In this document: positions 1 through 63,779 of the stretch, piece by piece | Layout of the letters: every line of letters begins with the position of its first letter | Position numbering within the stretch: the stretch's first letter is position 1 | Source: an uncultured bacterium | Lineage (GTDB): Bacteria > Armatimonadota > JACIXR01 | Direction of reading: 5' to 3' | Assembly: GCA_938041455.1 (NCBI GenBank) | Contig: CALITO010000003.1 | Span: 98,548 to 162,547, forward strand | DNA: 64,000 nucleotides | Notes under the pieces: model-generated | Told to the model about the DNA's origin: nothing | What the model saw: only the letters and a program-made list of their open reading frames with translations | The model's database searches: none | Made by a program: the position numbers and the translations under genes

Positions 1-469
1 TCGTTTCCCGAATACCACTCCTAAAACCCTAAATATTGTGGCCAGGCTTATGCGCGCGGGGGGAGATCTTGAAAAAATTTATAGAAGGCTTTATGAGGAG
101 CGAAGCGAAGGATACTTGAAGATATTAGGGGAGGTGCTCTTAAGGGCGAGGATTAATTGTGGGGGCAAAGTCATTACCTCCTACATCTTAGATGAGGACC
201 GTGAAAAATATGATGTGGAAGAGGGGGAATTAGAGGGAATCGTGAATTACCTCCGCCTTCTTAGAGATTGGCAGGTCGTCTTCCTGCTAAAGGAGAGAAG
301 GGATGGTATCAGGGTGAACATCCGTTCTCGCTCCCTCGACGCGGGGAAATTTGCCCAACTCTTCGGAGGCGGAGGACATAAAGAAGCAGCTGGTTGCACT
401 ATACATCTATCCCTCGAGGAAACCCAAAATATCCTGATGGAGGAACTAAAAAAGTGGATGGTGTGTTGA
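1..469 (+). CDS. DHH/DHHA1 phosphoesterase (NrnA-like), C-terminal fragment; the 5' end lies upstream of the window
   Basis: The frame is open from the window edge to TGA at 467-469. It carries the DHHA1 GGGH motif (FGGGGHKEAAG). The position upstream of truB is typical of the rbfA-nrnA-truB arrangement. Confidence 0.65.
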   Translation, partial: RFPNTTPKTLNIVARLMRAGGDLEKIYRRLYEERSEGYLKILGEVLLRARINCGGKVITSYILDEDREKYDVEEGELEGIVNYLRLLRDWQVVFLLKERRDGIRVNIRSRSLDAGKFAQLFGGGGHKEAAGCTIHLSLEETQNILMEELKKWMVC

Positions 470-1353
470 ATGTATATAAACACCCAGGGCCTACTTCACA
501 CGATATAGTGGAGATGGCGAGGAAAGCACTGGGGATTAAAAAAATAGGGCACGCAGGAACCCTTGACCCTCTTGCTGAAGGAGTTTTGCTCCTTTGTATC
601 GGTAAAGGCACTCGTTTAAGCGACTACTTAGCAGACCTTCCCAAAGAATATCTTGCGGAATTCACCTTCGGTATAACTACTTCCACTTATGATGGGGAAG
701 GGGAGATAACCTCTCAAAGCGACGAAAAAGTTTCGGAAGAAGCGGTCAGAAAAATCCTTGGGGAGTTCATAGGCGAGATAGAACAGGTTCCCCCTCCTTC
801 CTCCGCCATTCATCACAAAGGGAAGAGGCTCTACGAGTGGGCAAGACAGGGAGTGCAGATAGAACTACCCCCTCGTAAGATAACTATCTACAGGTTGGAA
901 TTGGAGAACTTTCAACCGGAGGAAAGAAAGGGGTTATTCAGGATAACCTGCTCGAAGGGGACATACATAAGGGCTTTGGCAAGGGATATGGGGGAAAAGA
1001 TAGGAACCGGAGCTTATCTATCCCGTCTCATTAGAACTGCGGTGGGACCCTTTAAAGCCGAGGAAGCTTTCCCAGCCTCCCGGCTTAGGAAGGAAGAAAG
1101 AGAGGAAATAGAGAGGGGTATTATCCCTCTAATGGATGCTCTGCCCCATTTCCCCCTCTTCATAGTGGACTATCAGAAAGCTATAAAGATAGCCTCTGGA
1201 ACTTCACTTCCTCTGAATCAAGTTCCTTTCTCAATAGGGGAAAATGTGAGGGTGGTGAGCGAAAATAAACGATTAATCTCTATAGGAAGAATTACCATTA
1301 AAGAGGGGAAGCTTTACCTTAAGCCGGAGAAGGTTTTCGGTTATGAGTGGTAG
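463..1353 (+). CDS. truB: tRNA pseudouridine(55) synthase TruB
   Basis: Contains the GHAGTLDPLAEGVLLLCIGKGTR catalytic motif and a PUA-like C-terminus. The start is probably GTG 463 (N-terminus VLNVYKHPGPTSHD) in a GTGA overlap with the upstream stop. The ORF-track start at 394 would overlap the upstream gene by 76 nt. Confidence 0.85.
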   Translation: MLNVYKHPGPTSHDIVEMARKALGIKKIGHAGTLDPLAEGVLLLCIGKGTRLSDYLADLPKEYLAEFTFGITTSTYDGEGEITSQSDEKVSEEAVRKILGEFIGEIEQVPPPSSAIHHKGKRLYEWARQGVQIELPPRKITIYRLELENFQPEERKGLFRITCSKGTYIRALARDMGEKIGTGAYLSRLIRTAVGPFKAEEAFPASRLRKEEREEIERGIIPLMDALPHFPLFIVDYQKAIKIASGTSLPLNQVPFSIGENVRVVSENKRLISIGRITIKEGKLYLKPEKVFGYEW

Positions 1354-2245
1354 AACCATTCTCCCCGGGACATTTGATGGTGTCCACTTAGGGCATCGTT
1401 TCCTCCTCGAGAAAGCGAAGGAAGTAGTAGGTGATACCCGCATTACCGTCCTCACCTTCAATCCTCATCCTCTTTTCCTTCTGGGTAAAATAAAAGGGGA
1501 TTTCCTTTTGACTACACAAGGGGAAAAGGAAGAGCTCTTGCGCTCAGCGGGGGTAGACGAGGTGATAACCCTTCCATTCGATGACACCCTTCGTAATATG
1601 TCTCCCGATGTATTCTGGAAGGAAATCCTTGTGGATACGCTAAAGATGAGGAAGATAATCGTAGGCGAGGATTTCCGCTTCGGGAGAAATAGGGAAGGAG
1701 ATAGGGATGTTATCGCTAAATTGGGTTCTCTCTACAAGGTGGATGTTTTGGTGTTTCCCCCCTTTAAGATAGGAGGGAAGATAGTTAAAAGTGAGGAGAT
1801 AAGGAAACTGTTGAGGAAAGGGATGGTGAAGGAGGCGAGTAAGCTACTAGGACGGCTTTATTCCCTTAGGGGGAAGGTAGTAAGGGGAGAAGGGTTGGGG
1901 CATAAACTCGGCTGTCCCACGGCTAATTTAGAGATCCCTTCAGAGAAATTGAAACCTATGAAGGGGGTCTACGCAGTAAAGGTGAAAATGAGGAACAGTT
2001 GTTTTAACGGGATCTGCTATATAGGAAATAGACCAACTCTCTCTCCCGAGAGAGAGACCGTTTGTGAGGTGCATATATTTGACATCAAGGGGGATTTACT
2101 GGGGCTAACTATGGAGATATTATTCCTTGAAGCCATAAGAGAGGAAAAAAAGTTCCCCTCACTTGAAGAACTTTCCCGGCAAATAGAGAAGGATATACTC
2201 GAGGCACAGCGCATCCTTTTGACGAGCGATATAGAGGCTTGCTAA
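1343..2245 (+). CDS. ribF: bifunctional riboflavin kinase / FMN adenylyltransferase RibF
   Basis: Carries the GTFDGVHLGH nucleotidyltransferase motif and a C-terminal riboflavin kinase region (GRPTLS...EVHIFD). It overlaps the truB end by 11 nt. Confidence 0.9.
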   Translation: MSGRTILPGTFDGVHLGHRFLLEKAKEVVGDTRITVLTFNPHPLFLLGKIKGDFLLTTQGEKEELLRSAGVDEVITLPFDDTLRNMSPDVFWKEILVDTLKMRKIIVGEDFRFGRNREGDRDVIAKLGSLYKVDVLVFPPFKIGGKIVKSEEIRKLLRKGMVKEASKLLGRLYSLRGKVVRGEGLGHKLGCPTANLEIPSEKLKPMKGVYAVKVKMRNSCFNGICYIGNRPTLSPERETVCEVHIFDIKGDLLGLTMEILFLEAIREEKKFPSLEELSRQIEKDILEAQRILLTSDIEAC

Positions 2246-2601
2246 TTCTTCCCTATAGGGGTAAAATTAGGAATATGTATACGCAGGAACTAGTTAGGGA
2301 AGAAAGCGTCGTCCACATATTTGGACTCCTTTGCTGGTTTTTACCTTGCCTCGGATTCTTCGGAGGTGCTATATCCTCCCTTATTAAAAAGAGAGGAAGT
2401 TATCTTCTATGGGGTATGGGGCTTGGATTAATAGGTCCTTTAAACCTCCTATTATGGAGTTTGTATAGTGGACTACTTGATAAATTCGGCTTCGATAGTG
2501 TGAAGGCTTTCTTTTTAAACATCCTCGTCTTCGTCTCGATTGGGATACTATTGGGCTTCTTTTTAGCCTTTCTTTTTAAATTTCGCAAGAAGGAGGTTTG
2601 A
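2239..2601 (+). CDS. hypothetical small membrane protein (about 3 TM segments)
   Basis: Hydrophobic ORF wedged between ribF and ilvC with overlaps at both ends. No recognisable motif. Confidence 0.4.
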
Positions 2602-2606
2602 GAAAA

Positions 2607-3602
2607 GTGGCAAGGATATTCAAAGATGAAGAGGCAAACTTTGAGGTCCTCAAGGACAAAACAATTGCCATAATTGGTTATGGCAATCAGGGAGAAGCTC
2701 ATTCTCTTAATCTAAGGGATTCCGGTTTGAGAGTAATAGTGGCGGAGCTTCCCGATTCACCTGCCTGGAGAAGAGCTGAGGAAGCAGGTTTTAGTGTTGT
2801 GAGTGCGAAGGAAGCTGCGAGTATGGGGGATGTGGTTATGCTTCTCGTTCCCGATACTATTCAACCAAGGCTTTGGGAAGAGGAAATCGCCCCCAATATA
2901 AGGGAAGGTATTGCTCTTGGATTCGCTCACGGCTTTAACATCCACTATAACCAAATTAAACCACCTTCCACTATAGATGTTTTTATGGTTGCTCCAAAGG
3001 GTCCTGGGCGCCTGGTAAGGAGGATGTTTGAGGAAGGGAAGGGAGTTCCAAGCCTTGTAGCGGTGGAACAGGATGTTACTGGTTCCGCTTGGGATATCGC
3101 TCTTGCTTATGCGAAGGGGCTCGGTTCCACAAGGGTTGGGGTTATCCAGACTACCTTCAAGGAGGAAACAGAAACTGACCTTTTCGGTGAGCAGGTCGTC
3201 CTTTGTGGAGGAGTTACCGCCCTCATAAAAGCTGGCTGGGAGACATTGGTTGAGGCGGGATACCAGCCGGAGGTTGCCTATTTTGAATGTCTTCACGAGC
3301 TTAAATTGATAGTGGACCTCATTTACGAAGGTGGGATAGCCTATATGCGCCGCAGTATAAGCGATACCGCTGAATATGGCGATATGACGAGGGGACCACG
3401 TATCATTGACGAACTCGTAAGAGAGGAAATGAAGGAAATATTGAAGGAGATACAAAGGGGCGAGTTCGCCAGGGAGTGGATAATGGAGGGGAGGGCAGGG
3501 ATGCCGGTCTTCAATGCCCTGCGCAGAATAGAGGCTCAGCATCCCCTGGAAGAAGTGGGCAGAGAAATGCGTAAACTTATGCCCTGGTTGAAGCAAGGTT
3601 AA
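2607..3602 (+). CDS. ilvC: ketol-acid reductoisomerase IlvC
   Basis: Carries the [21 protein letters not shown] Rossmann motif and class I KARI length. GTG 2607 sits 10 nt after the AAGGAGG site at 2589-2596, whereas the ORF-track TTG 2598 abuts that site. Confidence 0.9.
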
Positions 3603-3605
3603 TAG

Positions 3606-3971
3606 ATGTATGGTATTATCCTGAGGGAAAGTTTTAGTGCTGCTCATTTCTTAAAAGGTTATAGGGGAAAATGCGAGCGGATACATGGACATAATTATTG
3701 GGTGGAACTCCATATTCAAGGTAAAGAGTTGGACAGAGTGGGGATCCTTTGGGATTTCGCTGAGGCGAAAAAAGTCTTGAGGGGGGTCTTGGATGAGCTG
3801 GATCACTCCTTGCTCAACGAGGAACCCATCCTCGGCTCCCTTAACCCTACGGTGGAAAACATCGCTCGTCATATATTTGAGAGGGTGAAAGCACAGATTC
3901 CCTCTCACTTGCTTTTAAAGCGGGTAACTGTTTGGGAGACGGATAATAGCGCTGGCTATTATGAAGAATAG
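3606..3971 (+). CDS. queD: 6-carboxy-5,6,7,8-tetrahydropterin synthase QueD
   Basis: 121 aa with a T-fold signature (CERIHGHNYWVE). Confidence 0.85.
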   Translation: MYGIILRESFSAAHFLKGYRGKCERIHGHNYWVELHIQGKELDRVGILWDFAEAKKVLRGVLDELDHSLLNEEPILGSLNPTVENIARHIFERVKAQIPSHLLLKRVTVWETDNSAGYYEE

Positions 3972-4641
3972 GGAGAATTTCCTCGTCCTCCTTTCCGCGG
4001 GGCTGGATTCAACAGTTAATCTCAAACTGGCGTCCTTGCGCGGCAATGTCCTTCTTGCCCTCACATTTGATTATGGGCAAGTTGCAAGAGAGCAAGAGAT
4101 TAAGCGGAGTGCCTTGATTTGCAGAGAATTGGGCGTGCCCCACAAAGTAGTGGAATTACCTTGGCTCAGAGAAATAGCCAAAAGTGGGTTGTTAAGCGGG
4201 GAAGTGCCCAGGATAAGGGATGGTAAAGAATTAGGGAAGAGGTCTTGGGAGCAAGTTTGGGTGCCTGGTAGGAACCTCCTCTTCATTTCCATAGGGGTCG
4301 CTTTCGCTGAGGCGATGGAAGCAGATGGGGTGGTCTGCGGCTTTAATAAGGAGGAGGGAGAAATATTTCCCGATAATTCACCTTCCTTCGTTTCCGCTAT
4401 GAACTCCCTTCTTCAATACGCTTCACTAAGAGAGATAAAAGTTATTTCCTTCACTCAAGATATGGACAAGGGAGAGATAGCGAGATTGGGTTGGGAGATA
4501 GGAGCCCCTCTCCAGCATTGCTGGCCTTGCTACCTGGGAGGGGAGGAGATATGCGGGGAATGTGAGTCCTGCTTCAGATTTTTAAGAGCCCTTAAAAAGG
4601 CGGGATTATACGAAATATGGAAGGAAAAAAGGAGACTATGA
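3961..4641 (+). CDS. queC: 7-cyano-7-deazaguanine synthase QueC
   Basis: Carries the N-terminal PP-loop LVLLSAGLDSTV and a C-terminal Zn-binding Cys cluster (CWPCYLGGEEICGECESC). Confidence 0.9.
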   Translation: MKNRENFLVLLSAGLDSTVNLKLASLRGNVLLALTFDYGQVAREQEIKRSALICRELGVPHKVVELPWLREIAKSGLLSGEVPRIRDGKELGKRSWEQVWVPGRNLLFISIGVAFAEAMEADGVVCGFNKEEGEIFPDNSPSFVSAMNSLLQYASLREIKVISFTQDMDKGEIARLGWEIGAPLQHCWPCYLGGEEICGECESCFRFLRALKKAGLYEIWKEKRRL

Positions 4642-5189
4642 GGACCCTCTTTCTCAAGGAAAGAGTTCTTTACGATGGTAGCCAGCTACATTCTCATTGG
4701 GCCTATAAGAATTATTCGCTCCTTGGTGATAGCGTAGTTGCCTTTATCGGTCCTTGTGAGGTAAAAAAAGAGGAAATGGTGGATTTGGAGGATTTTCTGA
4801 AAGGGGAGGTTATAAGAGCGGAGGAAATGTTGCATTTCATTTGTGAGCATTTTGGCTTAGATTTGAGGGAGACGGTCTACCGTCAGAGGTTGCTAATCGT
4901 CTGTGCTAAGGAAGCACTTGAAGAGAGAGGGTTAAGAATCCTGAGGGTAGGGGACGATTTGTTCTACAATCAAAGAAAGCTTTCCATATCCATAGCCACC
5001 ATTACTCCCCTCTCGGGTAAAATACATCTCGGAATAAATATAGACCCCCGGGGAGCGCCCTTGCCAGCAGTGGGCTTAAAGGAGATAGGAATAGAACCCG
5101 TTGGTTTTGGGGAGGAAGTAATGAGGCGGTATAAAGAGGAAATAGAAGGAATACATACCACTATGTATAAGGTGAAGGGGGTGCCTTGA
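4638..5189 (+). CDS. uncharacterised 183-aa protein embedded in the que operon
   Basis: ATG 4638 overlaps the queC stop (ATGA) and is preceded by AAGGAG. No motif recognisable by eye. Its position between queC and queE implies co-transcription. Confidence 0.5.
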   Translation: MRTLFLKERVLYDGSQLHSHWAYKNYSLLGDSVVAFIGPCEVKKEEMVDLEDFLKGEVIRAEEMLHFICEHFGLDLRETVYRQRLLIVCAKEALEERGLRILRVGDDLFYNQRKLSISIATITPLSGKIHLGINIDPRGAPLPAVGLKEIGIEPVGFGEEVMRRYKEEIEGIHTTMYKVKGVP

Positions 5190-5193
5190 TTCT

Positions 5194-5952
5194 TTGCTCG
5201 AGCTTCCCCAAGCCTACATATATGAGATTTTTTCAACTATCCAAGGGGAGGGGATATATGTGGGGGAGAGGGAGGTATTTATCCGCTTTTGCGGGTGCAA
5301 CATTTCTTGCCCCTACTGTGACACCGAGTTCGCCTTGAAAAGGGTTTCCGCCTGCCTAGTGGAAAAGGAAGCAGGAATACGAGAATTTGATGTCCGTCCC
5401 AATCCCATAGGTCCTGAGGAGCTTGTTAAATTGCTCGCCCCTCTTTTGAAGAACCAGAAAATCCATCATTCCCTTTTTCTTACCGGGGGGGAACCCTTGA
5501 TTTGGGGTCAATTCCTTGCCCATTTCCTTCCCCAAGCGAGGAGGGTTTTCAACCTTCCCATAACATTGGAGACCAATGGGACCTTGCCTTCCGAGCTCGC
5601 CAGGGTTCTTCCCTGGATTGACATAATCTCTATGGATTATAAGCTACCCTCCACAATGGGAGGGGCAAATTATGCGGATGCGCACAAGGAATTCCTCCTC
5701 TTGGCCAAAAGCAAGGATGTTTTCCTGAAGTTCGTCCTAACAGCCTCTGTGGGCTTGGAGGAATTAAGAGAAGCATTCGCAATGGTTCATAAGTTGGGAG
5801 ATTTCCCCATCGTTCTTCAGCCAGTTACACCGGTTGAAAATATCCAACCTCCCAGCGAAGTCCTATTGCTCAAGATGCAGGAGATAGGAAAGGAGTTCTT
5901 CAGCAGGGTGAAGGTTTTACCACAAATGCACAAACTAATGAGGATAAGATGA
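5194..5952 (+). CDS. queE: 7-carboxy-7-deazaguanine synthase QueE (radical SAM)
   Basis: Carries IFSTIQGEGxxxG followed by a CGCNISCPYC cysteine cluster, as at the QueE N-terminus. A TTG start is likely. Confidence 0.85.
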   Translation: MLELPQAYIYEIFSTIQGEGIYVGEREVFIRFCGCNISCPYCDTEFALKRVSACLVEKEAGIREFDVRPNPIGPEELVKLLAPLLKNQKIHHSLFLTGGEPLIWGQFLAHFLPQARRVFNLPITLETNGTLPSELARVLPWIDIISMDYKLPSTMGGANYADAHKEFLLLAKSKDVFLKFVLTASVGLEELREAFAMVHKLGDFPIVLQPVTPVENIQPPSEVLLLKMQEIGKEFFSRVKVLPQMHKLMRIR

Positions 5953-5955
5953 GAT

Positions 5956-7047
5956 ATGTCCGTAGCGATGATAGGTATAAGCAAAGGAAGAGGAGAGTTA
6001 AAGGGAGAGGAGCGTTATATTAGGGCTATCGAGGAGGCAGGTGGTAAAGCTGTTATCCTTCCCCCCGGCAAGGGAGAGATAATACACAAATTAAATGGTT
6101 TGCTTTTGCCAGGGGGAGGAGATGTAAAGCCTTGTTTTTATGGGGAGGTTGAGCAAGGAAGCGAATCCATAGATGAGGAGAGGGATAAATGGGAGATAGA
6201 ACTTGCCCGCAGTTTCTTTAAGGAAGGAAAATCTATATTGGGAATATGCAGAGGGGCGCAGGTGTTGAACGTTTCCCTCGGGGGAACCCTCCATCAAGAT
6301 ATTAAAGGGCATAGGGAAGGGAGGCATTTGATCAAGATAGAAGAAGAGAGCTTGCTCTCTGATATCCTTGAGGGGATAAAGGAGATAGAGGTTGATTCCT
6401 CTCATCATCAAGCGGTAAAGGAAGTTGCTCCTTCTCTAAAGGAGGATGCCCGGAGCGGGGATGGCATTATAGAAGGGATAGAAGGAGAGGGTTTTATCCT
6501 CGGCGTTCAGTTCCATCCAGAAAGGATATATAAAGAGCAACCCATTATTTTCAATATATTTAAAAAATTCGTTCGAGCCTCTAAACGGGAGATATATACC
6601 TTAGGAACAAGCACGAGAAATTGGGAAGAGTTCATAGAAATCTTGAAGGCTTATGATGTGGAAGAAGTAGTGGATGTTAGAAGATTTCCTCTGAGCCGGT
6701 TGGAATGGTTCAGGAAGGAGGAACTTGAGAAGAGGTTGAGGGGAGAGGGGTTATTTTATATATGGATGGGCGAAGGATTGGGAGGCTATCGCTCACCTAG
6801 TTACCAAGCATACACTCGGACAGAGGAGTTCGGAGAAAGTTTGAAAAAATTATCTCAGCGAGCTTTGAGAAAGAGAGTGGTGATAATCTGTGCTGAGGCT
6901 TTACCCTGGCGATGCCATAGACGCTTCATAGCAAGTGCTATGGAGGAGAGGGGCTGGAAAGTTACCCATATAATAAGCAAAGGGAAAGAATGGTGCCCCA
7001 CTGAAAGGGTCCATCCCGAGGACGACCTCTTTTCGGAGGATGTTTAA
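5956..7047 (+). CDS. class I glutamine amidotransferase-like (peptidase C26 / gamma-glutamyl hydrolase-like) domain fused to a DUF488 domain
   Basis: The N-terminus carries the GICRGAQ nucleophile-elbow Cys and GVQFHPE His, matching the C26/GATase1 fold. The C-terminus carries IYTLGTS...VVDVRRFP...CAEALPWRCHRRFIA, typical of DUF488 (YeaO-like). Confidence 0.7.
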   Translation: MSVAMIGISKGRGELKGEERYIRAIEEAGGKAVILPPGKGEIIHKLNGLLLPGGGDVKPCFYGEVEQGSESIDEERDKWEIELARSFFKEGKSILGICRGAQVLNVSLGGTLHQDIKGHREGRHLIKIEEESLLSDILEGIKEIEVDSSHHQAVKEVAPSLKEDARSGDGIIEGIEGEGFILGVQFHPERIYKEQPIIFNIFKKFVRASKREIYTLGTSTRNWEEFIEILKAYDVEEVVDVRRFPLSRLEWFRKEELEKRLRGEGLFYIWMGEGLGGYRSPSYQAYTRTEEFGESLKKLSQRALRKRVVIICAEALPWRCHRRFIASAMEERGWKVTHIISKGKEWCPTERVHPEDDLFSEDV

Positions 7048-7056
7048 TGACTGAAA

Positions 7057-7980
7057 TTAACGGGGTGGGGAATAACCTTCCAAGGGTGCGAAGGCATCCA
7101 CCCAAGGTTGGAGCAGACGGCGCTTATCCTCCGGAAGGCGGAAGTAAGCCCTTACTCCTGCCGAAATTATAGGTTCAGCGAAGCTCGCTACTTGGGATTG
7201 CCTCTCAGGTGGTAGGGAGAGGAAGGCATTAACAGCGTTGGATAAGAAGACGGCGACATTCTGTATGATCCCGTCTCTTTGCTCAGGTGGTAGGGAAAAA
7301 AGACGGTCGAACAAGTTGCTCATCAGGTTCACTCGTTCCTCAGGTGACAACTGAAGAAATCTTTGATAGTTCTCCATAAATCGCTGGGGACCACTGGCTG
7401 GGGAAACTTCTTCTCCCTCTCCGCCAAATACTTGGGAGAAGTCATCCAGGTTTAAGGAAATGGTGGGCTTTGTTATGATATAAACTTTCTCCCAGTATAC
7501 CCCAGCGGAAGAACAGAGCCTGTCTATGATCCTTTCTATTCTTTGGTTTTTAAAACTGAGAGCATTCGTTGTGCCCTTTACATTAGGGTTCACCAGTATC
7601 CTAATTTTGCTCTCTTTTTCCAGTGCCTGTAAAGCATCGCTCAAAGGCGTTCCCTTATCAAAACTTATGGATACCAGGGGACCACCTAAGACCCGGGGCT
7701 TTTTAGTTTTTTGAGTAGAAACGAGGTAGCCCTCCTCCCACCTTGCAGAAACCTGGCTGGTGAGAGCATTCAAAACCTCCGATAAAGCCGCTTTATTAGC
7801 TTCGAGAGAAACCCTCTTCTCTATCGGTGATAGGACCAGTATTTTTACTCCCGCCTTTTCCTCTATCATTTTCACAGCGGAGTGGAAAGGCTCATCGATC
7901 ACCTTGAAGGTCAACAATGGGGAAGCGGCCAAACAAAGTCCTGTGATGCTAATGGTTACTAAAAGCAAATATCTTCTCAT
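7057..7980 (-). CDS. secreted protein with two STN-like (secretin/TonB N-terminal) domains
   Basis: Has a signal peptide and an AAGGAGGTG site 8 nt upstream of ATG 7980. The ISFDKGTPLSDALQALEKESKIRILVNP motif resembles an STN domain. Confidence 0.5.
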   Translation of the reverse strand: MRRYLLLVTISITGLCLAASPLLTFKVIDEPFHSAVKMIEEKAGVKILVLSPIEKRVSLEANKAALSEVLNALTSQVSARWEEGYLVSTQKTKKPRVLGGPLVSISFDKGTPLSDALQALEKESKIRILVNPNVKGTTNALSFKNQRIERIIDRLCSSAGVYWEKVYIITKPTISLNLDDFSQVFGGEGEEVSPASGPQRFMENYQRFLQLSPEERVNLMSNLFDRLFSLPPEQRDGIIQNVAVFLSNAVNAFLSLPPERQSQVASFAEPIISAGVRAYFRLPEDKRRLLQPWVDAFAPLEGYSPPR

Positions 7981-8019
7981 TTTTTAAACACCTCCTTTAC
8001 CGAGATTATTTTACCATTT

Positions 8020-10221
8020 CTATATAGTCTTGTGAAACTTCCTAAAAGAGGAGAGGAAGCATAATAAGGTAAGGGATAGAAGGGAGATATAGAATCCCAG
8101 TTTGAAGGCGAAAGGGCGGAAGAGGAAGAGAAGACGGTGTTTCCCCGCTGGCACAGGGACGCTTCTAAAGATGTAATATGGAATTATCGCTTTCTCTTCT
8201 CCGTCCAGAAATGCTCGCCAGCCAGGGTAATAGGTATCGGTGAATAAAAAATAGCCTTCCTTTTCCCCCTCGATCTCAAACTCCACCCTATTTGGTGAGT
8301 AAGCCAGAAGCTTGGAGCTTCCTTGGGCCTGGAAAAATTGGTCAACAAAACTGAACCTTAAAGGGTTTCCCAAATAGAGATAAAGCTTTGTTTCCCCATC
8401 CCTGAGCAGTTTCAGATGGGAGGCATCTATATAGAAAGGAGAAAGGACGAACTTCACCCCCAAAATATCAAGGTTTTCCTTTCTCACAGAATTCGGCAAA
8501 AGCATATTACCGTTCTCTAACGGGGCGGTATTCTTACCTTCAAGGTTATCCAAAAAACTCTTGTAGGGAAGCAAAAAAAGGCTGTCATAGCCTCCTACAT
8601 TAAAAAGTTGATACACCATAGAAGTATTGGGGGGAAAACATGCGAGAGGATATCTATAAAGAGACCAGCGAGGAGTTATCGCCAATAACCTATAAAAACT
8701 TCCTTTGAGTTGCTCTACAAAAGGAAGGGGAGGGAAGAGCTTTTCAGGGGGGGAGAAATAGAGATGGCTGGAAGCAGTGGGGAAAAGGTCAAGAAGGAGA
8801 AGGGGGAGAAGGAGATAGGGAAGGAGTTTTTTTCGGAAAACGATGAATAGATAAAGGAAGAGAGGCAGGAGGAATAGTTTGAGGAAATCCATATAAGGGA
8901 AGGTGGGGGATACATCTCTTAAGATGGTGAATGGTTCCTCTCTTGGGGCTAAGGAGAAGAGGAGGAAGGGGAAAAGTATTATTGGGAAGAAGGTGGAGTG
9001 GAGGAAGCGGCGGGAAAAGGGTGTGCGGAGCAGGGTATCGAAACCTATTCCTGCTCCCGCAGATAGGCAAAGGACAAAGACGCTGATAAGACGAGCGGGG
9101 GAACCAGTTTGGCTCCAAGCAGGGAAAAGGAAATAAAAAGGGATGTTCAAGGGAGTGCCGAGTAAAAGAAGAAAGGAAAGCAGGGAGATGATTAGGAGGG
9201 GAAAGGCAAATTTCCTTTCCCCTCGCAAGGTGAAAGGCAGACAAAAAAGAGGTAAGATACCGAGATAGAGTGCGTATTCTATATATTCTCCCCTGCCCCA
9301 GTAGTTTCCCTTTGCGGGATTGCCGAAGAAGTTAGGCAGGAACAACCCTATAAGCCGTTCCAGTGGCAAAGAGAGGGAGATATAAGCGTTGTAGGATTGC
9401 CAACTGGTGCTTTCGGCTCTATGAGCAAAGCGGAAAAACTCAAACAAAGGGAGAAGGGCGAGGGAGGACAAAAGGAGCCCCATACCAGCTCCGAAAAGTG
9501 GGACAAAAGAACTGCCCAAGTAAACCCTCTTTTCCCAAGGGAGACGAAGCAGGAGGTAGATTATCAGTAGCCAAAGTGTATAAAGGAGGAATTGAGGGTG
9601 TCCCCCAAGGGCACTTAAACTGAGGGAGATTGCGCAGGTAAGGAAGGAATGCCAAAGTTTTTTCTCCAAAGCAAGTTCTACCCCGATTAGCGCGAGGGGA
9701 GCCCAAACGAAGGAGTTAGCCACGGTGGGTAAGGGTAGCCAAGCAGTGACGAAACTGCTGAGCATATAAGCGAGGGAGGCGAAAAGCGAGGCGTAGGCAG
9801 AAACCTTTATTTTTCTAAGGAAAAGATAAAGCAGAAAGCCAGCCAAGAACAAGTGGAAGAAAGAGTTGAAACCGAGAAACCTCTTTCCCAGAAGCGCGGT
9901 TAACCAATTAAATGGGTAGAAGATAGCGGATTGTCCGTTGGCGTAAAAGGGGGTGCCACAAAACTGATAAGGGTTCCAGAGGGGTAAGAACCCCCCTCGC
10001 AGGCTCTCGGCGAGAAAATTGCGCCAGGGATAAAACTGAGCGATGCTATCCCAAAGGAGAGGGTTCCATTGTATACCTTCCCGAGGGGAGCCAATCTCTG
10101 CCCACGGTTGAAAATGGAAAAGCATATCCGCGGGAGAGAAAATGTAGCCCAGAAAAACTCTCACCATCAAAAAGAACGCTACGAGAAGTAATAGAAGAGG
10201 GGGAAAAAGTTTTTTTAGCAT
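8020..10221 (-). CDS. YfhO-family polytopic membrane protein (putative glycosyltransferase)
   Basis: Multi-TM N-terminus with WxxYxFxGxPF-type motifs and a large C-terminal periplasmic domain. The start is placed at the internal Met (MLKKLF, 10221) because the further 48 nt of the ORF-track frame overlap the intergenic repeat. Confidence 0.65.
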   Translation of the reverse strand: MLKKLFPPLLLLLVAFFLMVRVFLGYIFSPADMLFHFQPWAEIGSPREGIQWNPLLWDSIAQFYPWRNFLAESLRGGFLPLWNPYQFCGTPFYANGQSAIFYPFNWLTALLGKRFLGFNSFFHLFLAGFLLYLFLRKIKVSAYASLFASLAYMLSSFVTAWLPLPTVANSFVWAPLALIGVELALEKKLWHSFLTCAISLSLSALGGHPQFLLYTLWLLIIYLLLRLPWEKRVYLGSSFVPLFGAGMGLLLSSLALLPLFEFFRFAHRAESTSWQSYNAYISLSLPLERLIGLFLPNFFGNPAKGNYWGRGEYIEYALYLGILPLFCLPFTLRGERKFAFPLLIISLLSFLLLLGTPLNIPFYFLFPAWSQTGSPARLISVFVLCLSAGAGIGFDTLLRTPFSRRFLHSTFFPIILFPFLLFSLAPREEPFTILRDVSPTFPYMDFLKLFLLPLFLYLFIVFRKKLLPYLLLPLLLLDLFPTASSHLYFSPPEKLFPPLPFVEQLKGSFYRLLAITPRWSLYRYPLACFPPNTSMVYQLFNVGGYDSLFLLPYKSFLDNLEGKNTAPLENGNMLLPNSVRKENLDILGVKFVLSPFYIDASHLKLLRDGETKLYLYLGNPLRFSFVDQFFQAQGSSKLLAYSPNRVEFEIEGEKEGYFLFTDTYYPGWRAFLDGEEKAIIPYYIFRSVPVPAGKHRLLFLFRPFAFKLGFYISLLSLTLLCFLSSFRKFHKTI

Positions 10222-26943: not shown

Positions 26944-26983
26944 TATATCGCAAAAAATTGCCCTCCTGTGAGCCACAGGAGGG
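26944..26983 (-). terminator. rho-independent terminator / possible attenuator hairpin between miaA and carA
   Basis: On the minus strand, the 10-bp stem CCCTCCTGTG-GCT-CACAGGAGGG is followed by CAATTTTTTG. The T-tract ends about 13 nt before the carA ATG. Confidence 0.5.
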
Positions 26984-27080
26984 CAATCTAAACTTCTTAA
27001 ACCCTTCCTAGCCTCACAGGACTAGATTTAAAGGGCTTCTTCAATTGTTAATTAAATTTTACTCCAAATAGAATATAAAG

Positions 27081-32646: not shown

Positions 32647-33168
32647 ATGAGGGCTTTTCAATGGTCTGTTAAGGACTTAACGAGGGCGAGCTTCCTTGGA
32701 GCTTTAGGGCTCGCCCTTCCTTTTCTCTTCCATCTCGTGGGTGCGGGGAGGATATTCTTGCCTATGCATATCCCCATCCTACTGGGAGGTTTTTTACTTC
32801 CCCCAACTCTCGCCTGCTTTCTTGGTGCAGTGGTGCCGTTTCTCTCCTCACTTCTAACTGGTATGCCACCTATCCTTCCCACGATGCCAATTATGGTCCT
32901 TGAGCTCGCTGGGCTGGGGGGAATAACGGCAATTCTCTATCACAATCTGAAAGTCGGCGTATGGGGAAGTCTAATAGGGGGGATAGTGGGAGATAGGTTT
33001 GTCCTTGCTCTCGTAGTTCTAATCCTTGGGAGATGGTTGGAGGTCAAATCCCCCATCGTTTATGTAGGTGGAGCGGTGATGACGGGCATTCCGGGGATTA
33101 TTTTGCAACTCTTAATCATTCCCCCCATAATTTATTTTTATGAGAAGCGCAAAAGGGAAGGGGGATAA
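32647..33168 (+). CDS. putative ECF-transporter substrate-specific (S) component
   Basis: 173 aa with 5-6 TM helices, sitting immediately upstream of, and overlapping, the EcfT/EcfA fusion gene. Confidence 0.5.
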   Translation: MRAFQWSVKDLTRASFLGALGLALPFLFHLVGAGRIFLPMHIPILLGGFLLPPTLACFLGAVVPFLSSLLTGMPPILPTMPIMVLELAGLGGITAILYHNLKVGVWGSLIGGIVGDRFVLALVVLILGRWLEVKSPIVYVGGAVMTGIPGIILQLLIIPPIIYFYEKRKREGG

Positions 33169-34429
33169 ACTCTGGATTATATTCCCTTCCTTTCTTATCC
33201 TTCCTTTTCTAATCCCTTGGATTAAGGGGAAATTCTTGCTTTCCCTTCTGCTTTTCTCCTTCTTTCTCCTTTTCTGCTACCGCATAAAATGGGAATGGTT
33301 TAAAAAAAGGTTTCTGCCTTTCCTTATATCTATAACTACGCTGACCTGCTTCTCACTACTTCTTGGGGGATCCAGAGATAAGATAATAGAACTCGACGCC
33401 CGTTGTGCAGGCGTTTTTCTTCTCTTTTCCCTTGTCACGAGCCAAATTACTCCCTCCCAGCTTTTGAGGATTTTCTCAAAAGAAGGAAAGCCCTCTTCGA
33501 TTGCCTTATTTTTCTATCTTACTTTCCGTTATTTTTCTCTCCTCTTAGAAGAAGGACAAAGGATGGTTCGTTCTGCTCAAGCGAGGGGAGGAGAGATGAA
33601 GAAGATAGTTTGGAGGTCCTTTAAACTCTTCGTAAATTATATTCTGAGAATTTTGAGGAGGAGCGAGGTGGTAGCGATGGCTATAGAAGCGAGAGGCTGG
33701 GAGGGGACGGAGACGCCCCCTCTATCTCAAGATGAGATAAGGTTGGAGGATGTTTCATTTACCTATCCCGATGGTAAAGAGGCGCTGAAGAATATAAACT
33801 TGAGGATAGGAAAGGGAGAAAGGGTGGCGATTTTGGGGAGAAATGGGGCGGGGAAATCGACCCTCCTTTGGGTTATAGGGGGATTTCTTAAGCCCAGGGG
33901 GAAGGTGAATGTCTTCGGAATAGAGGTGAAGAAAGAGAATCTTCCCAAATTGAGGAAAATAGTGGGCATAGTGTTTGAAGACCCCGAGGACCAGCTTTTA
34001 ATGCCCTCGCTTATTGAGGATGTTATGTTCGGTCTATTGAATATTGGTTATAGAAGGGGTGAAGCGGAGAGGTTGGCGAGGGAGGAATTGAAGAGGTTTG
34101 GTTTAGAAGGGTATGAAGAAAGCCATCCCCACGATTTATCACAGGGTGAGAAGAGGAGGGCATCTTTGGCAGGTGTAATGGTGATGAGACCACAACTTCT
34201 ACTTTTGGATGAGCCGAGCGCCAATTTGGATGCCCGAGGGCGCAAGGAATTGGTGGATATTTTAAAGGGACTGGATGCAACCTTTCTCCTTGCCACACAC
34301 GATTTCCAACTGGTGAGGGCGCTCTGCCCGAGGGCGGTTGTCCTCCTTGAAGGCGAAGTTGTTTACGATGGCGCAATGAAAAGTTTAGTAGAACAAAGGC
34401 AACTCTTAGAGGGCTGGGGGATATTATAG
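33140..34429 (+). CDS. ECF/CbiQO-type transporter: T (transmembrane) component fused to an ABC ATPase
   Basis: The N-terminal membrane half carries the two EcfT coupling-helix Ala-Arg-Gly motifs (SAQARGGE, AIEARGWEG). The C-terminal half has Walker A GRNGAGKST, the LSQGEKRR signature and Walker B LLLDEPSANLD. Confidence 0.7.
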   Translation: MRSAKGKGDKLWIIFPSFLILPFLIPWIKGKFLLSLLLFSFFLLFCYRIKWEWFKKRFLPFLISITTLTCFSLLLGGSRDKIIELDARCAGVFLLFSLVTSQITPSQLLRIFSKEGKPSSIALFFYLTFRYFSLLLEEGQRMVRSAQARGGEMKKIVWRSFKLFVNYILRILRRSEVVAMAIEARGWEGTETPPLSQDEIRLEDVSFTYPDGKEALKNINLRIGKGERVAILGRNGAGKSTLLWVIGGFLKPRGKVNVFGIEVKKENLPKLRKIVGIVFEDPEDQLLMPSLIEDVMFGLLNIGYRRGEAERLAREELKRFGLEGYEESHPHDLSQGEKRRASLAGVMVMRPQLLLLDEPSANLDARGRKELVDILKGLDATFLLATHDFQLVRALCPRAVVLLEGEVVYDGAMKSLVEQRQLLEGWGIL

Positions 34430-53532: not shown

Positions 53533-54980
53533 CTCTTCATCACTCCAATCCTTACTCTTTGGAAACGGGCATAGGGTACTTGATGTCCAACGAACATTGC
53601 CTGGGGAGGTTCTCCTTTCCCGCAGTTCGGCACTCCCAAAAGGAAGAGGGTGGATTCATCGGTGACAGCATCCAACGAGTTCCAGAATAGAGGGGTAATG
53701 CCCGTGTAAGTGGGGTTTTTAACCATTCCCTTTATCTCTCCATTCTCTATGAGCCATCCTATTTCGCCTGCGAATTGGAAGTTCAACCTTTTGTCATCTA
53801 TTGACCAAGAGGAATATTCCTCTATCAGAAGTCCCGCCTTTGTCTCTTGGACGAGTTCGTCCAAGGAGAAATCTCCTGGTTCAAGGTTTATGTTTGTCAT
53901 TCTTATGAGGGGCAAGTTGTTATAGCCATCGGCGCGAGCGCATCCTCCCGATTTTATTCCCAACTTATAAGCTACTTCTCTGGAGGTTAGATAATTTTTG
54001 AATATTCCTTCCTTGACAAGTTCTATCTTCTGCGCTCTAACACCTTCGTCATCGAACTCGAAATGTCCGAGTGCCTTCTCCAGGGTAGCATCCGCTACAA
54101 GATTGACGAGGGGACTGCCATAGCGGAAATTGCCAAGTTTATCTCGGGTCAAAAAAGTATCCCCCGCATAGGAGGTTTCATAGCCGAAAACCCTATCCGC
54201 TTCAGAGGGATGTCCACAGGATTCGTGGATTTGGAGACCGAGCATTGATTTGCCGATTATGAGCGTCCTTTCATCCGATGGGCATAGGGGAGCATTGAGG
54301 AGCGCTTCCGCTTCCTTAGCAATCCTTTCTGCCTGGGAGGGAAGGTCGAGGCTTCTCACGAACTCCCACCCCATCTGGGCATAGTTGCCCCCCATAGCAG
54401 GGTAGGAACGTTCTTGGGTTTCTTCCCCTTCTACGGCAGTGGCGCTTATCCCACCGCCACATATTGTTATTATTTGCTCTATATCGGCGCCTTCACTTGA
54501 GAGGAAGAACTTCTCCTCTCTAAAAGAGTTAAGGGTGCTTTCCCGAACTTTTATCTTGGGCGAGATGTTCAGCAAGCGGTCGCATTCAAGAAGGAACTCC
54601 ACTTTATCGGGAAGGGGTATATCAAAGGGGTTTTCTTTATAGGGGAATTTAAAACTTCCTTCACCAACTTCCTCTTCCGACAAATTAACCTCCATATTTC
54701 CCGCTTTGTGAGCGCTTCTCGCCATCTGGATAGCCATCTTTGCCGTTTCTCTCACTCCCTCAGGGGTTAGTTGGTTAGTAGCGGCGAAGCCCAGCGCCTT
54801 GTTCCAGATCACTCTTATGCCTAATCCTGCCTCTTCCCGAGATTCTATTCTCTCCGGTCTCCCATTCTTCACATATACTTCTTCTGATTTTCGTCTTACT
54901 ATTCTTGCATCGGCAAAGTTGGCACCCTCTTCCAACGCCCTCTCGATTGCTTTCCTCAGAAGTTCTTGCATATTAGACAA
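53529..54980 (-). CDS. tldD: TldD-family metallopeptidase
   Basis: HESCGHPSEADRV (HExxxH) metal site. TldD length. Confidence 0.85.
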   Translation of the reverse strand: MSNMQELLRKAIERALEEGANFADARIVRRKSEEVYVKNGRPERIESREEAGLGIRVIWNKALGFAATNQLTPEGVRETAKMAIQMARSAHKAGNMEVNLSEEEVGEGSFKFPYKENPFDIPLPDKVEFLLECDRLLNISPKIKVRESTLNSFREEKFFLSSEGADIEQIITICGGGISATAVEGEETQERSYPAMGGNYAQMGWEFVRSLDLPSQAERIAKEAEALLNAPLCPSDERTLIIGKSMLGLQIHESCGHPSEADRVFGYETSYAGDTFLTRDKLGNFRYGSPLVNLVADATLEKALGHFEFDDEGVRAQKIELVKEGIFKNYLTSREVAYKLGIKSGGCARADGYNNLPLIRMTNINLEPGDFSLDELVQETKAGLLIEEYSSWSIDDKRLNFQFAGEIGWLIENGEIKGMVKNPTYTGITPLFWNSLDAVTDESTLFLLGVPNCGKGEPPQAMFVGHQVPYARFQRVRIGVMKR

Positions 54981-55845
54981 ACCTCCCTTTTACACCAGTT
55001 CGCTTCTCTTCCTCTATGCGCTTTCTTCCCAACTCAAAGAAAGGCTTTGCGAAATCGGTTGCCCAAGTGCGCTCCTCAAAAGTGCGTTGTTCGAGGGTTT
55101 TAAGGAAACCCTCTATCTCCTTAAAGTAAGAACCGTAGATATGATAGGAATCGGAGATATCCACATATCTTCCTACGAATACCTCCTTCCCAATTTTAAC
55201 GCTTATTCTCTCCGCTATCAATCGTTGCAGGTCGGTAAGGGCGAAGATGTTCATAAAAGCTGCCTTAAAGGCGTCCCTGCTTCGCCAATGGGTGTTCATA
55301 TTGAGGTAGAATTTGCCCTCTTCTTCTGTGAGCCTGCACCAAATACGCTGAAGGCAGGGAGGGTCGTCGGTCTTAGGGTCCATACCCGGCTTCCAGGTTA
55401 TTGCTTGGGCACGCCGAGAGTAGGGAACTTGGGAAAGTTTTTCAATTATATAGGCTATTTGGTCTATTTTCTCTCCCTCGGTTGAGTAGGAGAAGAGGCG
55501 CTCGTGATAAGTGTAGGTCCATTTTCCTTCCTCGGGGGCTATCCAATGGTCGTGGACGCCTTCCACCACCTCAAGGCGATATATCTCCAAATCTTCCAAA
55601 CCACCGGGGAAGCAACGATGGATGCGGGGTTCGGCAAGTGGTTGCTCTATAATCATGATCATAGTGCAGTCCCGACTAGGTGGATCCTCCGGTTTATCAT
55701 ATTCAGTCCTTATCGCTATCCCTTCCCTCCAGGTGGCAAGAACGGAGTTCTCCCATACCTCAGGCAGGGTCCTACCTCTTACTAAAAGGACGGGAATATC
55801 AATCCTCACGCTATCCATACCTCCCATATAGATGCTTTTTAACAT
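54973..55845 (-). CDS. divergent thymidylate synthase (ThyA)-fold protein
   Basis: Read-off alignment to E. coli ThyA across the catalytic core: IDQI...SRR...W, PPC (Cys nucleophile), WRSRD (cf. QRSCD) and MNIFA (cf. FNIAS). The His after the catalytic Cys is replaced by Leu, and the N-terminal half is divergent. Confidence 0.6.
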   Translation of the reverse strand: MLKSIYMGGMDSVRIDIPVLLVRGRTLPEVWENSVLATWREGIAIRTEYDKPEDPPSRDCTMIMIIEQPLAEPRIHRCFPGGLEDLEIYRLEVVEGVHDHWIAPEEGKWTYTYHERLFSYSTEGEKIDQIAYIIEKLSQVPYSRRAQAITWKPGMDPKTDDPPCLQRIWCRLTEEEGKFYLNMNTHWRSRDAFKAAFMNIFALTDLQRLIAERISVKIGKEVFVGRYVDISDSYHIYGSYFKEIEGFLKTLEQRTFEERTWATDFAKPFFELGRKRIEEEKRTGVKGRFV

Positions 55846-62717: not shown

Positions 62718-63779
62718 TTATCGCCAGAAAGAGGGAGAGAAGGTCTCGTAACATATTGTCGTAATTAACGCCTCGGGTCTTGTCCAAGTTAGCCAGATTT
62801 TGTCCATATACTGCCCTGGCAGATAATTGGGGAAGGCGCTGAGCTGGCTTTCGTGGGTAATATTATCTATGGGAACCATCCGCTCGGGATTGAGGACCGT
62901 TTCCTCGTCAAGCGTTGGTATCACCTGCTGGTTGTTGAAGAGGAGTGTTATCGTCCTTCCTTCATCCTCAGGGGCAAAGTAGATTATACCCGTGAGGGGG
63001 TCCATAGGATACCACTCATAAGCTCCACCCGAAGTTTTCACCCAAATTGTTCCCTTGGCATCCATAAATGCGGTGGAGCCGTAAGCTCCCGAGGGAGGGA
63101 GGAGCGATAGTGCCCTGACCCTCAATGCCTTATGGAAGAGTGTGACCAGCCCTTGTGCTACAGGGGAATGGCTTCTCCTCCAAAAGAGATGGATTCTATC
63201 CCTGTTAAGATATACCCCTCCTGAGCGGGGGTCAGCTTGCCCCTGCCAACCGGGATTTCCCACAGGAGGATGCTGGATATTCACAGAGCTCTCCACCACT
63301 GCTATTGGCTGAGCATCGCTAAGGGTGGACGAGGTAAGAGAGAGCACACGGGGGCTATATTGGGCAACGATATTGCCCAAGAAAGGCTGTTGGAAGGTGA
63401 GGACACCTGCCACGGTATTCATCCAAATCTTGCCCAGTTGAGCATCATCCACGAACCACTCTTGCTTATCTGCATCCCAGTGCCAGTCGGTTATCTCCCT
63501 TCCATCAACCCAGATGCGAGGGGCGAGGGCGGGGTCATCTCTTCTCGTCATCCAAAAGATGTGCCTCGACCAGTAAATCGTGCCGGTTTCGTTCCTCTGA
63601 AGGGTCTCGCCCATAACTCGGGGGAAGGGAAGCATTAGCCCTGAAAGGACGAGCCTTCCCGTCTGGTTCTCGTAGATGATGGGATAGCGGGACATCAGGA
63701 TTTCCATATTGCCCCTTGTGGCGAGGAAGCCGGTATAAATTAACTCCAATGTAGGAGTGGGCACTCCGTTAACATTCAT
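62718..63779 (-). CDS. hypothetical protein
   Basis: 353-aa ORF. Its ATG overlaps the stop of the upstream minus-strand frame (TAATG). No motif recognised. Confidence 0.45.
   Translation of the reverse strand: MNVNGVPTPTLELIYTGFLATRGNMEILMSRYPIIYENQTGRLVLSGLMLPFPRVMGETLQRNETGTIYWSRHIFWMTRRDDPALAPRIWVDGREITDWHWDADKQEWFVDDAQLGKIWMNTVAGVLTFQQPFLGNIVAQYSPRVLSLTSSTLSDAQPIAVVESSVNIQHPPVGNPGWQGQADPRSGGVYLNRDRIHLFWRRSHSPVAQGLVTLFHKALRVRALSLLPPSGAYGSTAFMDAKGTIWVKTSGGAYEWYPMDPLTGIIYFAPEDEGRTITLLFNNQQVIPTLDEETVLNPERMVPIDNITHESQLSAFPNYLPGQYMDKIWLTWTRPEALITTICYETFSPSFWR

Follow-up and report, generated by a model that had tools for sequence, protein, structure and literature searches.

The route from GTP to preQ0 (7-cyano-7-deazaguanine), the compound underlying queuosine, archaeosine, deazaguanine DNA modification and the deazapurine antibiotics, is treated as solved with four enzymes, among which QueD converts dihydroneopterin triphosphate to 6-carboxytetrahydropterin (CPH4) and QueE converts CPH4 to 7-carboxy-7-deazaguanine (CDG). 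We analysed a 64-kb stretch of DNA from an uncultured bacterium (contig CALITO010000003.1, positions 98,548 to 162,547; referred to below as the window), in which genes for QueD, QueC and QueE are accompanied by two further genes, one encoding a DUF366 protein and the other a fusion of a peptidase C26-type glutamine amidotransferase (GATase) with DUF488. A sequence-only reading of the window had described an expanded preQ0 operon containing an unrecognisable 183-aa open reading frame (ORF) and a terminal two-domain gene. All five ORFs are found where it had placed them, both overlaps that it reported (11 nt between queD and queC, and the ATGA shared by queC and the DUF366 gene at 4638) are present on direct reading, and the preQ0 cluster is supported, with the 183-aa gene belonging to it.

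QueC turns CDG into its amide, 7-amido-7-deazaguanine (ADG), and dehydrates the amide to the nitrile preQ0, consuming two ATP and one ammonia (PMC13329287). Its canonical signature consists of SGGxDS, YxQxHxxE, VPxRN, YPDC, and C(x)8CxxCxxC with a Tyr after the first Cys (Cluster 1, PMC13329287). In E. coli QueC, Y35, R99, Y131 and Y189 are essential, with Y131F partly active, and the YPDC motif is placed at the mouth of the substrate pocket (PMC13329287). Similar to the queC-queD-queE-queF operon of B. subtilis and its FolE-QueD-QueE-QueC pathway, the window clusters co-oriented genes for QueD, QueE and QueC, and the hallmarks of the canonical pathway (CxxxHGH, the radical S-adenosylmethionine (SAM) motif CxxxCxxC, the PP-loop and the zinc cysteines) are all present in its enzymes. 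Unlike the B. subtilis-type operon, the window cluster has neither queF nor folE and carries DUF366 between queC and queE. It further differs from the canonical operon in its divergent QueC (SAGLDS, no motif His, FPDN, Cx7C) and QueE (below model cut-offs), and in the C26-DUF488 gene at its end.

The two additional genes can be compared with other described proteins. In Gat-QueC of Crenarchaeota and phage 9g, a glutaminase-type domain is likewise genetically coupled to QueC in a deazaguanine cluster; in that protein QueC itself carries a class-II GATase, and the assigned product is archaeosine (G+) (PMC10516641). The window domain falls outside that definition, as it is of the class-I/C26 type, is fused to DUF488, lies two genes from queC, and occurs in one lineage. 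It shares the Cys-His-Glu triad of PuuD, SpuA and Lin1909, but these are standalone proteins of polyamine catabolism, whereas the window protein adds DUF488 and lies in a que operon. DUF366 shares the fold of the BirA/LplA/LipB superfamily with an identity of only 9-18%. A reading of the whole cluster as a defence system (Qat, in which a QueC-like protein goes with QatA/B/D, or type IV CBASS with Cap9, in which it goes with a CD-NTase and a TGT-like protein) was rejected: PADLOC gives only a partial match to its QueC model with no partner proteins, and the neighbours are QueD and QueE.

Association of DUF366 with QueC

The 183-aa ORF proved recognisable after all. A profile search identifies it as Pfam DUF366 (PF04017), matched along its entire length with a score above the gathering threshold, and the family has a solved structure, on deposit since 2007 without functional annotation (2DDZ, protein PH0223 of Pyrococcus horikoshii), which matches the window protein with an E-value of 4e-44. 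Among 1.84 billion representative proteins (50% identity), 776 match the profile at E <= 0.001, and the 90%-clustered database holds 2806 DUF366 clusters; among those of the 2806 that were listed, nearly all are single-domain proteins of ~185 aa. One family representative (P0309, 347 aa) is a Clp_N-DUF366 fusion.

Scanning one genome per GTDB species with a profile of 10 sequences yielded 292 loci that encode a DUF366 relative (loci are numbered with L and proteins with P). Neighbourhoods were counted in the best 80 of the 292, with 8-kb flanks and with ORFs clustered by all-against-all BLASTP; the DUF366 ORF was recovered in 79 of these 80 loci, the window and L001-L005 included. QueC is present in 64 of the 79, QueE in 63, QueD in 57, and FolE in 37. 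QueC lies immediately upstream of DUF366 in 61/79 loci and QueE immediately downstream in 59/79, mostly with overlapping or abutting codons at the junctions. The loci belong to Bacillota, Actinomycetota, metagenome-assembled genomes (MAGs) of Desulfobacterota type, Gastranaerophilales, Armatimonadota, Nitrospirota, Planctomycetota, Chloroflexota, and the window's lineage. The full order queD-queC-DUF366-queE is found in Bacillota (Desulfotomaculia, Syntrophomonadaceae and Thermoanaerobacteraceae), Actinomycetota, Desulfobacterota-type and Pseudomonadota MAGs, Candidatus Deferrimicrobium, and the window's lineage, and partial versions in Gastranaerophilales (QueC-DUF366), Nitrospirota (DUF366-QueE-MnmA), Armatimonadota, and Zipacnadia. 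Homologs of the 183-aa ORF are in this way linked to que genes across many phyla, which passes the check that the sequence-only reading had proposed; at least eight phylum-level groups show the pattern, with flanks that are otherwise dissimilar. The order queD-queC-DUF366-queE is a widespread variant of the operon for which we found no description in the literature.

Several lineages keep QueC and DUF366 as a pair without QueE (L014, L017, L018, L040, L075, and L078), and in one case the two are a single protein. P0337 is a 438-aa fusion of QueC (residues 17-230) and DUF366 (residues 257-435) with no start codon at the junction, encoded in the context tgt-yajC-secDF-recJ-queD-[queC::DUF366]-queE. 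As it is identical on three contigs from three samples (L135 6001-7317, L136, and L137), it is a genuine gene fusion rather than an assembly error. The pairing also occurs on a viral contig (L086 7809-9225, IMGVR_UViG_3300032053_000038, 77.8 kb), where a divergent DUF366 of 252 aa lies directly upstream of QueC within a replication module that includes DnaB, primase, and RecA; no DpdA was seen in the 16 kb of this contig that were read, and ~4 kb more upstream showed neither DpdA nor further que genes. A plasmid search gave no DUF366 match. The single match among cultured phages, a DUF366 with 48% identity in "Microcystis phage MaAM05" (L138, MW495066.1 109408-123971), was given no weight: the sequence looks like a bacterial chromosome, and the neighbours are glyS, mtgA, engB, fabI, and fliM, with no que genes.

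The QueC that accompanies DUF366 is of a particular type. Window QueC is a member of the family by PF06508 (E 1.9e-51; 175 bits versus 22) and TIGR00364 (165.7 versus 150.3), and matches the QueC structure 2PG3 with an E-value of only 1e-17. Its motifs are SAGLDS (residues 12-17), YGQVA (38-42), VPGRN (101-105), FPDN (136-139), and a zinc motif CYx7CxxCxxC (190-204). VPGRN and the Tyr after the first zinc Cys are canonical features; the PP-loop SAGLDS, Ala in place of the motif His, FPDN in place of YPDC, and the Cx7C spacing depart from the canonical signature. Among the 61 DUF366-adjacent QueCs, FPDN is present in 54 and a close variant in 4, with no match to the regular expression in the other 3, and the His of YxQxH is in none of the 61. 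The sole canonical QueC of the set, with YPDC and the His, is that of L057, where one gene intervenes between QueC and DUF366. The FPDN type is also found in a Thermococcales QueC and in the natural fusion P0337.

QueE of the window is similarly distant from the established models. It contains IQGEG (residues 16-20) and the radical-SAM motif CNISCPYC (residues 35-42), and its best NCBIfam matches are QueE models, headed by TIGR03963 (E 1e-21; 77.7 versus a cut-off of 260); all five NCBIfam QueE models score below their curated cut-offs. Since no equivalog model passes, we base the assignment on best-hit identity, motifs, and context. As QueC is off the canonical signature at three motifs and QueE is under every NCBIfam cut-off, both represent divergent subtypes. 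QueD scores 98 against TIGR03367 (cut-off 89.25) and has the Cys-x3-His-Gly-His catalytic/zinc motif as CERIHGH (residues 23-29).

Besides the que genes, a few other genes recur beside DUF366. A 2-hydroxyglutaryl-CoA dehydratase D-component-like protein (PF06050), which might catalyse redox chemistry on a deazaguanine, adjoins DUF366/queC/queE in five loci of four phyla (L012 8716-10347, L025 6214-7293, L028 6316-7299, L039 1666-2664, and L048 2097-3173). In three loci that are proteobacterial or unclassified (L033 2824-4044, L046 3795-4955, and L075 8624-9766), the gene after queE or DUF366 encodes an HD-domain dGTPase-like triphosphohydrolase. In every one of the Thermococcales-like loci L091-L123, a small HAD/NIF-type phosphatase (~160 aa; L091 7511-7996) overlaps the DUF366 start, and L113 (4141-7453) has the order QueC-DUF2139-HAD-DUF366. 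SurE and other phosphatases were rejected as DUF366 partners in Bacillota: lepB intervenes in Syntrophomonadaceae, and SurE tracks lineage synteny.

Possible roles of DUF366

We consider it very likely that DUF366 takes part in 7-deazaguanine metabolism. Its function there is, on balance, probably that of a QueC partner in a two-protein variant of preQ0 synthase, with a mechanism that we infer as follows. The que block, very probably co-transcribed, makes preQ0 from dihydroneopterin triphosphate via QueD, QueE, and QueC. DUF366, small and probably oligomeric, would bind the FPDN-type QueC physically, and would either hold CDG or CDG adenylate or perform or assist one of the two ATP-dependent steps. 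The identities of the genes, the fold, the conserved gene adjacency, and the natural fusion are observations; the complex, its ligand, and any catalysis belong to the proposal.

The proposed ligand comes from the fold. DUF366 has the alpha/beta catalytic-domain fold of the biotin/lipoate-protein-ligase superfamily (BPL_LplA_LipB), and ligases of this fold bind a carboxylic acid and ATP; CDG and CPH4 are both carboxylic acids. Invariant residues of DUF366 include G105, D107, K114 (in KLSISIAT), H130, N134, and K178. A 30-sequence DUF366 profile matches the biotin protein ligase (BPL) of Aquifex aeolicus marginally (E 0.01), aligning R-x-G-D-D-L...K-L-S-V-S...I-H-x-G-x-N of DUF366 with W-P-N-D-V...K-K-V-S-G...G-I-G-I-N of BPL; in this marginal profile-to-sequence alignment, the invariant K114 falls on KKVSG and D107 on PND. 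The aligned BPL stretch includes the Asn-Asp and the Lys (K183 of E. coli BirA) that grip biotinyl-5'-AMP. Judged from sequence, the Asp and Lys with which these ligases bind the acyl-adenylate appear to be conserved in DUF366. The six chains of the 2DDZ crystal entry, together with the listing of PH0223 among self-interacting proteins in a two-hybrid table (PMC1414084), make an oligomer likely. HisZ, the class-II aminoacyl-tRNA synthetase-like regulatory subunit of ATP phosphoribosyltransferase, provides an analogy only, as it belongs to another sub-fold family and another pathway.

A number of observations weigh against a QueC partner. The chemistry does not require DUF366, since canonical QueC works without a partner. 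Related Bacillota account for many of the 80 loci, so the raw counts overstate independence, and the FPDN motif may be a mere mark of an archaeal-type QueC lineage. The sequence match to BPL is marginal, and the DUF366 alignment has no GRGRxGR motif, the biotin/ATP lid loop; the N-terminal half instead has other invariant residues, YDG, GD, and GPC. As this lid motif is missing, DUF366 is not filed as a ligase despite its fold, and it also differs from BirA, LplA, and LipB in having neither a C-terminal nor a DNA-binding domain. We found no literature on its function under DUF366, PF04017, COG2029, 2DDZ, or PH0223; reviews of 7-deazaguanine pathways and recent papers on them are silent about DUF366, and PF04017, PF07722, and PF04343 do not appear in a 2026 paper on the QueC family and one of its supplementary files (PMC13329287). 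On Thermococcales-like contigs, DUF366 is near QueC in only 1 of ~19 informative loci. In Roseiflexaceae/Chloroflexia (L024 7410-11820, L057 7346-11882, L068, and L015), DUF366 occurs with a Vut_1/YhhQ-like gene, DUF6884, and two divergent paralogs of the tRNA-guanine transglycosylase (TGT) family. Vut_1/YhhQ is a preQ0 transporter family, and this arrangement may be a salvage-fed deazaguanine insertion system, a context that fits preQ0 handling better than a role inside QueC catalysis. A purely intra-QueC role does not explain the Thermococcales and Roseiflexaceae patterns.

These patterns lead to the alternative that DUF366 acts outside QueC catalysis, binding or carrying preQ0 (or CDG): it would collect this base, which is poorly soluble, from QueC or an importer and pass it on to TGT, archaeal TGT (arcTGT), or DpdA. 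We hold this to be possible, though rather unlikely. It agrees with the transporter-DUF366-DUF6884-TGT paralog order in Roseiflexaceae, where L024 has no adjoining QueC and the QueC of L057 is canonical, and with the presence of DUF366 in archaea, which insert preQ0 directly. The C-terminal fusion to QueC is equally compatible with product hand-off, and a pocket for small molecules is central to the ligases of this fold. However, the position between queC and queE and the link to a QueC subtype altered at the pocket motif favour a step of the synthase; TGT genes are no regular neighbours in the 80 loci, and a passive carrier would not need the adenylate-site Asp and Lys that appear to be kept.

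A stronger form of the QueC partnership, which we regard as doubtful, would make DUF366 the ATP-using catalytic subunit of a two-protein preQ0 synthase in archaea and many anaerobic bacteria, a pared-down protein of the biotin/lipoate-ligase fold that would adenylate CDG (or ADG), take over one of the two steps managed by canonical QueC alone, and thereby offset the altered FPDN pocket of its partner, with the C26 domain perhaps adding glutamine nitrogen in the window's lineage. That DUF366 and the que genes adjoin merely through inherited synteny, with no bearing on function, is highly improbable and disfavoured. Related Desulfotomaculia, which have the order folE-surE-murJ in common as well, do make up many of the 80 loci, but the adjacency recurs among at least eight phylum-level groups with differing flanks; it is also seen on a viral contig, and three independent assemblies carry it as a fusion protein.

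The C26-DUF488 fusion gene

The two-domain reading of the terminal gene is borne out by the profile search, which finds Peptidase_C26 followed by DUF488. The C26 triad is intact, with Cys98 in GICRG and His187 and Glu189 in FHPE. Lin1909, PuuD, and a "probable glutamine amidotransferase" of P. aeruginosa, which we take to be SpuA, are the best relatives of this half by sequence and structure (E 1e-32 to 1e-22); ICRG and HPE are kept in alignments to Lin1909 (3FIJ, E 1e-32) and PuuD (6VTV). PuuD and SpuA are hydrolases of gamma-glutamyl-amines, not ammonia-channelling subunits. DUF488 (PF04343) is matched with 78.5 bits against 22.2, over profile positions 2-120 of 121, and its invariant motifs are present as DVRRFP (residues 240-245), LGGYR (275-279), and CAExxPWRCHRR (312-323).

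The fusion is known from ~16 protein clusters with 57-100% identity, all from one uncultured lineage, and every readable context keeps the order ilvC-queD-queC-DUF366-queE-fusion, a synteny seen in L001-L008 of that lineage. Neither half is found by phmmer in the other ~70 DUF366/que loci. The nearest standalone C26 proteins lie beside an amino-acid permease or UDP-glucose dehydrogenase, and the nearest standalone DUF488 proteins beside a PaaK-like ligase or on uninformative short contigs, none of them with que neighbours; in the DUF366 cluster nearest to these from outside the lineage, queE is followed by hydantoinase genes. The expectation of a conserved que linkage for GATase-DUF488 homologs consequently fails, as the fusion occurs in one lineage only and neither half is que-linked elsewhere. 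Moreover, ilvC too is conserved in this block, so adjacency that persists within the lineage is not proof of functional coupling. We regard the fusion gene as a lineage-specific addition, probably co-transcribed, whose role in the pathway is unproven; as a lead it is weak, and weaker than DUF366.

There is about an even chance that this gene is a passenger outside deazaguanine metabolism that has only the long polycistronic unit in common with the que genes, for example one combining gamma-glutamyl-amine hydrolysis with a nucleic-acid- or nucleotide-directed DUF488. DUF488 is promiscuous, being fused elsewhere to endonuclease III, EamA, and MFS transporters (P0026 and P0063 are among the proteins cited for DUF488), and its fold appears to resemble phosphatases of the protein tyrosine phosphatase type, RNA 5'-phosphatases included. 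It also matches the PADLOC candidate defence components PDC-M45B (E 1e-26) and PDC-M19A. DUF488 looks enzyme-like and tied to nucleic acids or defence, and the PADLOC matches and the endonuclease III fusion hint at an activity that may be directed at nucleic acids. The string of genes from nusA to the fusion is equally packed throughout and mixes unrelated functions. Set against this, the que block keeps this gene even where both of its flanks differ (L002, L003, and L005), and no specific alternative substrate has positive support.

The competing proposal, put forward in the sequence-only reading, is that the C26 domain is a dedicated glutaminase feeding QueC, with DUF488 as an accessory and all five genes forming one expanded preQ0 machine. 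Its intact triad, its start 3 nt past the queE stop, and its adjacency to the que genes in all seven distinct genomes of the lineage despite differing flanks are in keeping with such a role, and Gat-QueC offers a precedent for a glutaminase joined to QueC (PMC5699537, PMC10516641). Nevertheless, the GATase of Gat-QueC is of class II, is part of the QueC protein, and has archaeosine rather than preQ0 as its assigned product. The restriction of the fusion to one lineage, the absence of its halves from the other DUF366/que loci, standalone homologs that neighbour permease, dehydrogenase, and ligase genes rather than que genes, characterised relatives (PuuD and SpuA-type) that hydrolyse gamma-glutamyl-amines, and the presence of ilvC in the same conserved block, which lets adjacency stand without functional implication, all speak against it. 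The rationale that QueC uses NH3 twice was wrong, as QueC takes one ammonia, not two, along with its two ATP (PMC13329287). A dedicated glutaminase for QueC is chemically reasonable, but the comparative evidence does not favour it, and we judge it quite unlikely.

Layout of the cluster and its surroundings

The features of the cluster are listed in Table 1.

Table 1. Genes and domains of the que cluster and the adjoining ilvC, in window coordinates.
Feature	Coordinates	Strand	Supporting match
ilvC, ketol-acid reductoisomerase	2598..3602	+	NF004017 E 1.7e-161
queD, 6-carboxytetrahydropterin synthase, 121 aa	3606..3971	+	PF01242 (PTPS) E 1.5e-38; TIGR03367
queC, preQ0 synthase, divergent FPDN subtype, 226 aa	3961..4641	+	PF06508, TIGR00364
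DUF366 protein, 183 aa	4638..5189	+	PF04017 E 4.5e-67
queE, 7-carboxy-7-deazaguanine synthase, 252 aa from TTG	5194..5952	+	radical SAM PF04055 E 6e-10
Fusion gene, Peptidase_C26 (residues 19-189) and DUF488 (residues 223-328)	5956..7047	+	E 1.9e-49 (Peptidase_C26); E 8.6e-22 (DUF488)
Class-I glutamine amidotransferase / peptidase C26 domain of the fusion	5956..6600	+	PF07722 E 1.9e-49
DUF488 domain of the fusion	6601..7047	+	PF04343

All junctions within the cluster are tight. The queC ATG at 3961 precedes the queD TAG (3969-3971), which gives the 11-nt overlap; queC and DUF366 share ATGA at 4638-4641, with AAGGAG 7 nt upstream; the DUF366 stop (5187-5189) is followed after 4 nt by the TTG start of queE at 5194, and reading of the junction found no in-frame ATG ahead of the essential IQGEG motif; and the queE stop (5950-5952) is followed 3 nt on by the ATG of the fusion gene at 5956. 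Promoter-like and terminator-like sites in positions 1-8200 are no more frequent than in shuffled sequence, and with such matches at chance level a single transcript is the simplest reading. The one-transcript claim for the que cluster is accordingly upheld as very probable.

The dense packing does not begin with queD. The ilvC stop at 3602 lies 3 nt before queD, and further upstream ilvC, a small membrane ORF, ribF, and truB overlap or abut; on a longer contig with identical genes, the packed string begins at nusA-infB. Equally tight packing upstream through ilvC makes packing a property of the region rather than evidence for a shared function, and ilvC, functionally unrelated to the que genes, is probably on the que transcript. 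The predicted membrane ORF (108-120 aa; 2239-2601 in the window) has no Pfam match and is directly upstream of ilvC in every genome of the lineage.

As to the fate of preQ0, the earlier observation that queF, tgt, and dpdA are not visible in the window held in motif scans, tblastn searches, and Pfam spot checks. Motif scans with Pfam spot checks, short of a full annotation, gave no TGT-family, QueA, QueF, or QueH motif in the 64 kb, and tblastn searches, likewise short of a full annotation, no FolE, DpdA-like, or YhhQ-like match. For Dpd, the phage-type 7-deazaguanine DNA modification, the window shows neither a motif of the TGT family to which DpdA belongs nor a tblastn match to DpdA. In the window and nine DUF366 loci, no preQ1 riboswitch reaches the Rfam gathering threshold, at which short preQ1-I elements could escape. 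The organism with the QueC-DUF366 fusion has a bacterial-type tgt 5 kb upstream, consistent with queuosine.

Elsewhere in the window, positions 32647-34429 encode the S component of an ECF transporter (PF12822) and, after it, a CbiQ-like T component fused with an ABC ATPase; the S component matches only the generic PF12822 and no QueT-specific family. A PyrR-binding RNA element (Rfam RF00515, 66 bits) is at 26952-27038 on the minus strand, upstream of carA-carB. Two minus-strand ORFs are of uncertain affiliation, one of 353 aa (62718-63779) with no Pfam match, and one of 290 aa (54973-55845) with a partial thymidylate-synthase match only, adjoining tldD/pmbA-like genes.

The glutaminase-DUF488 gene is mainly one more data point on DUF488, and the more interesting part of the cluster is DUF366, a genuine, conserved, and unexplained component. 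It represents a fifth family tied to QueC by gene order and one fusion, in archaea-like and anaerobic bacterial lineages. If DUF366 is a QueC subunit or a preQ0 handler, the annotation and reconstitution of these pathways would change, the divergent QueC subtype would be explained, and a long-standing structural-genomics orphan would gain a function.

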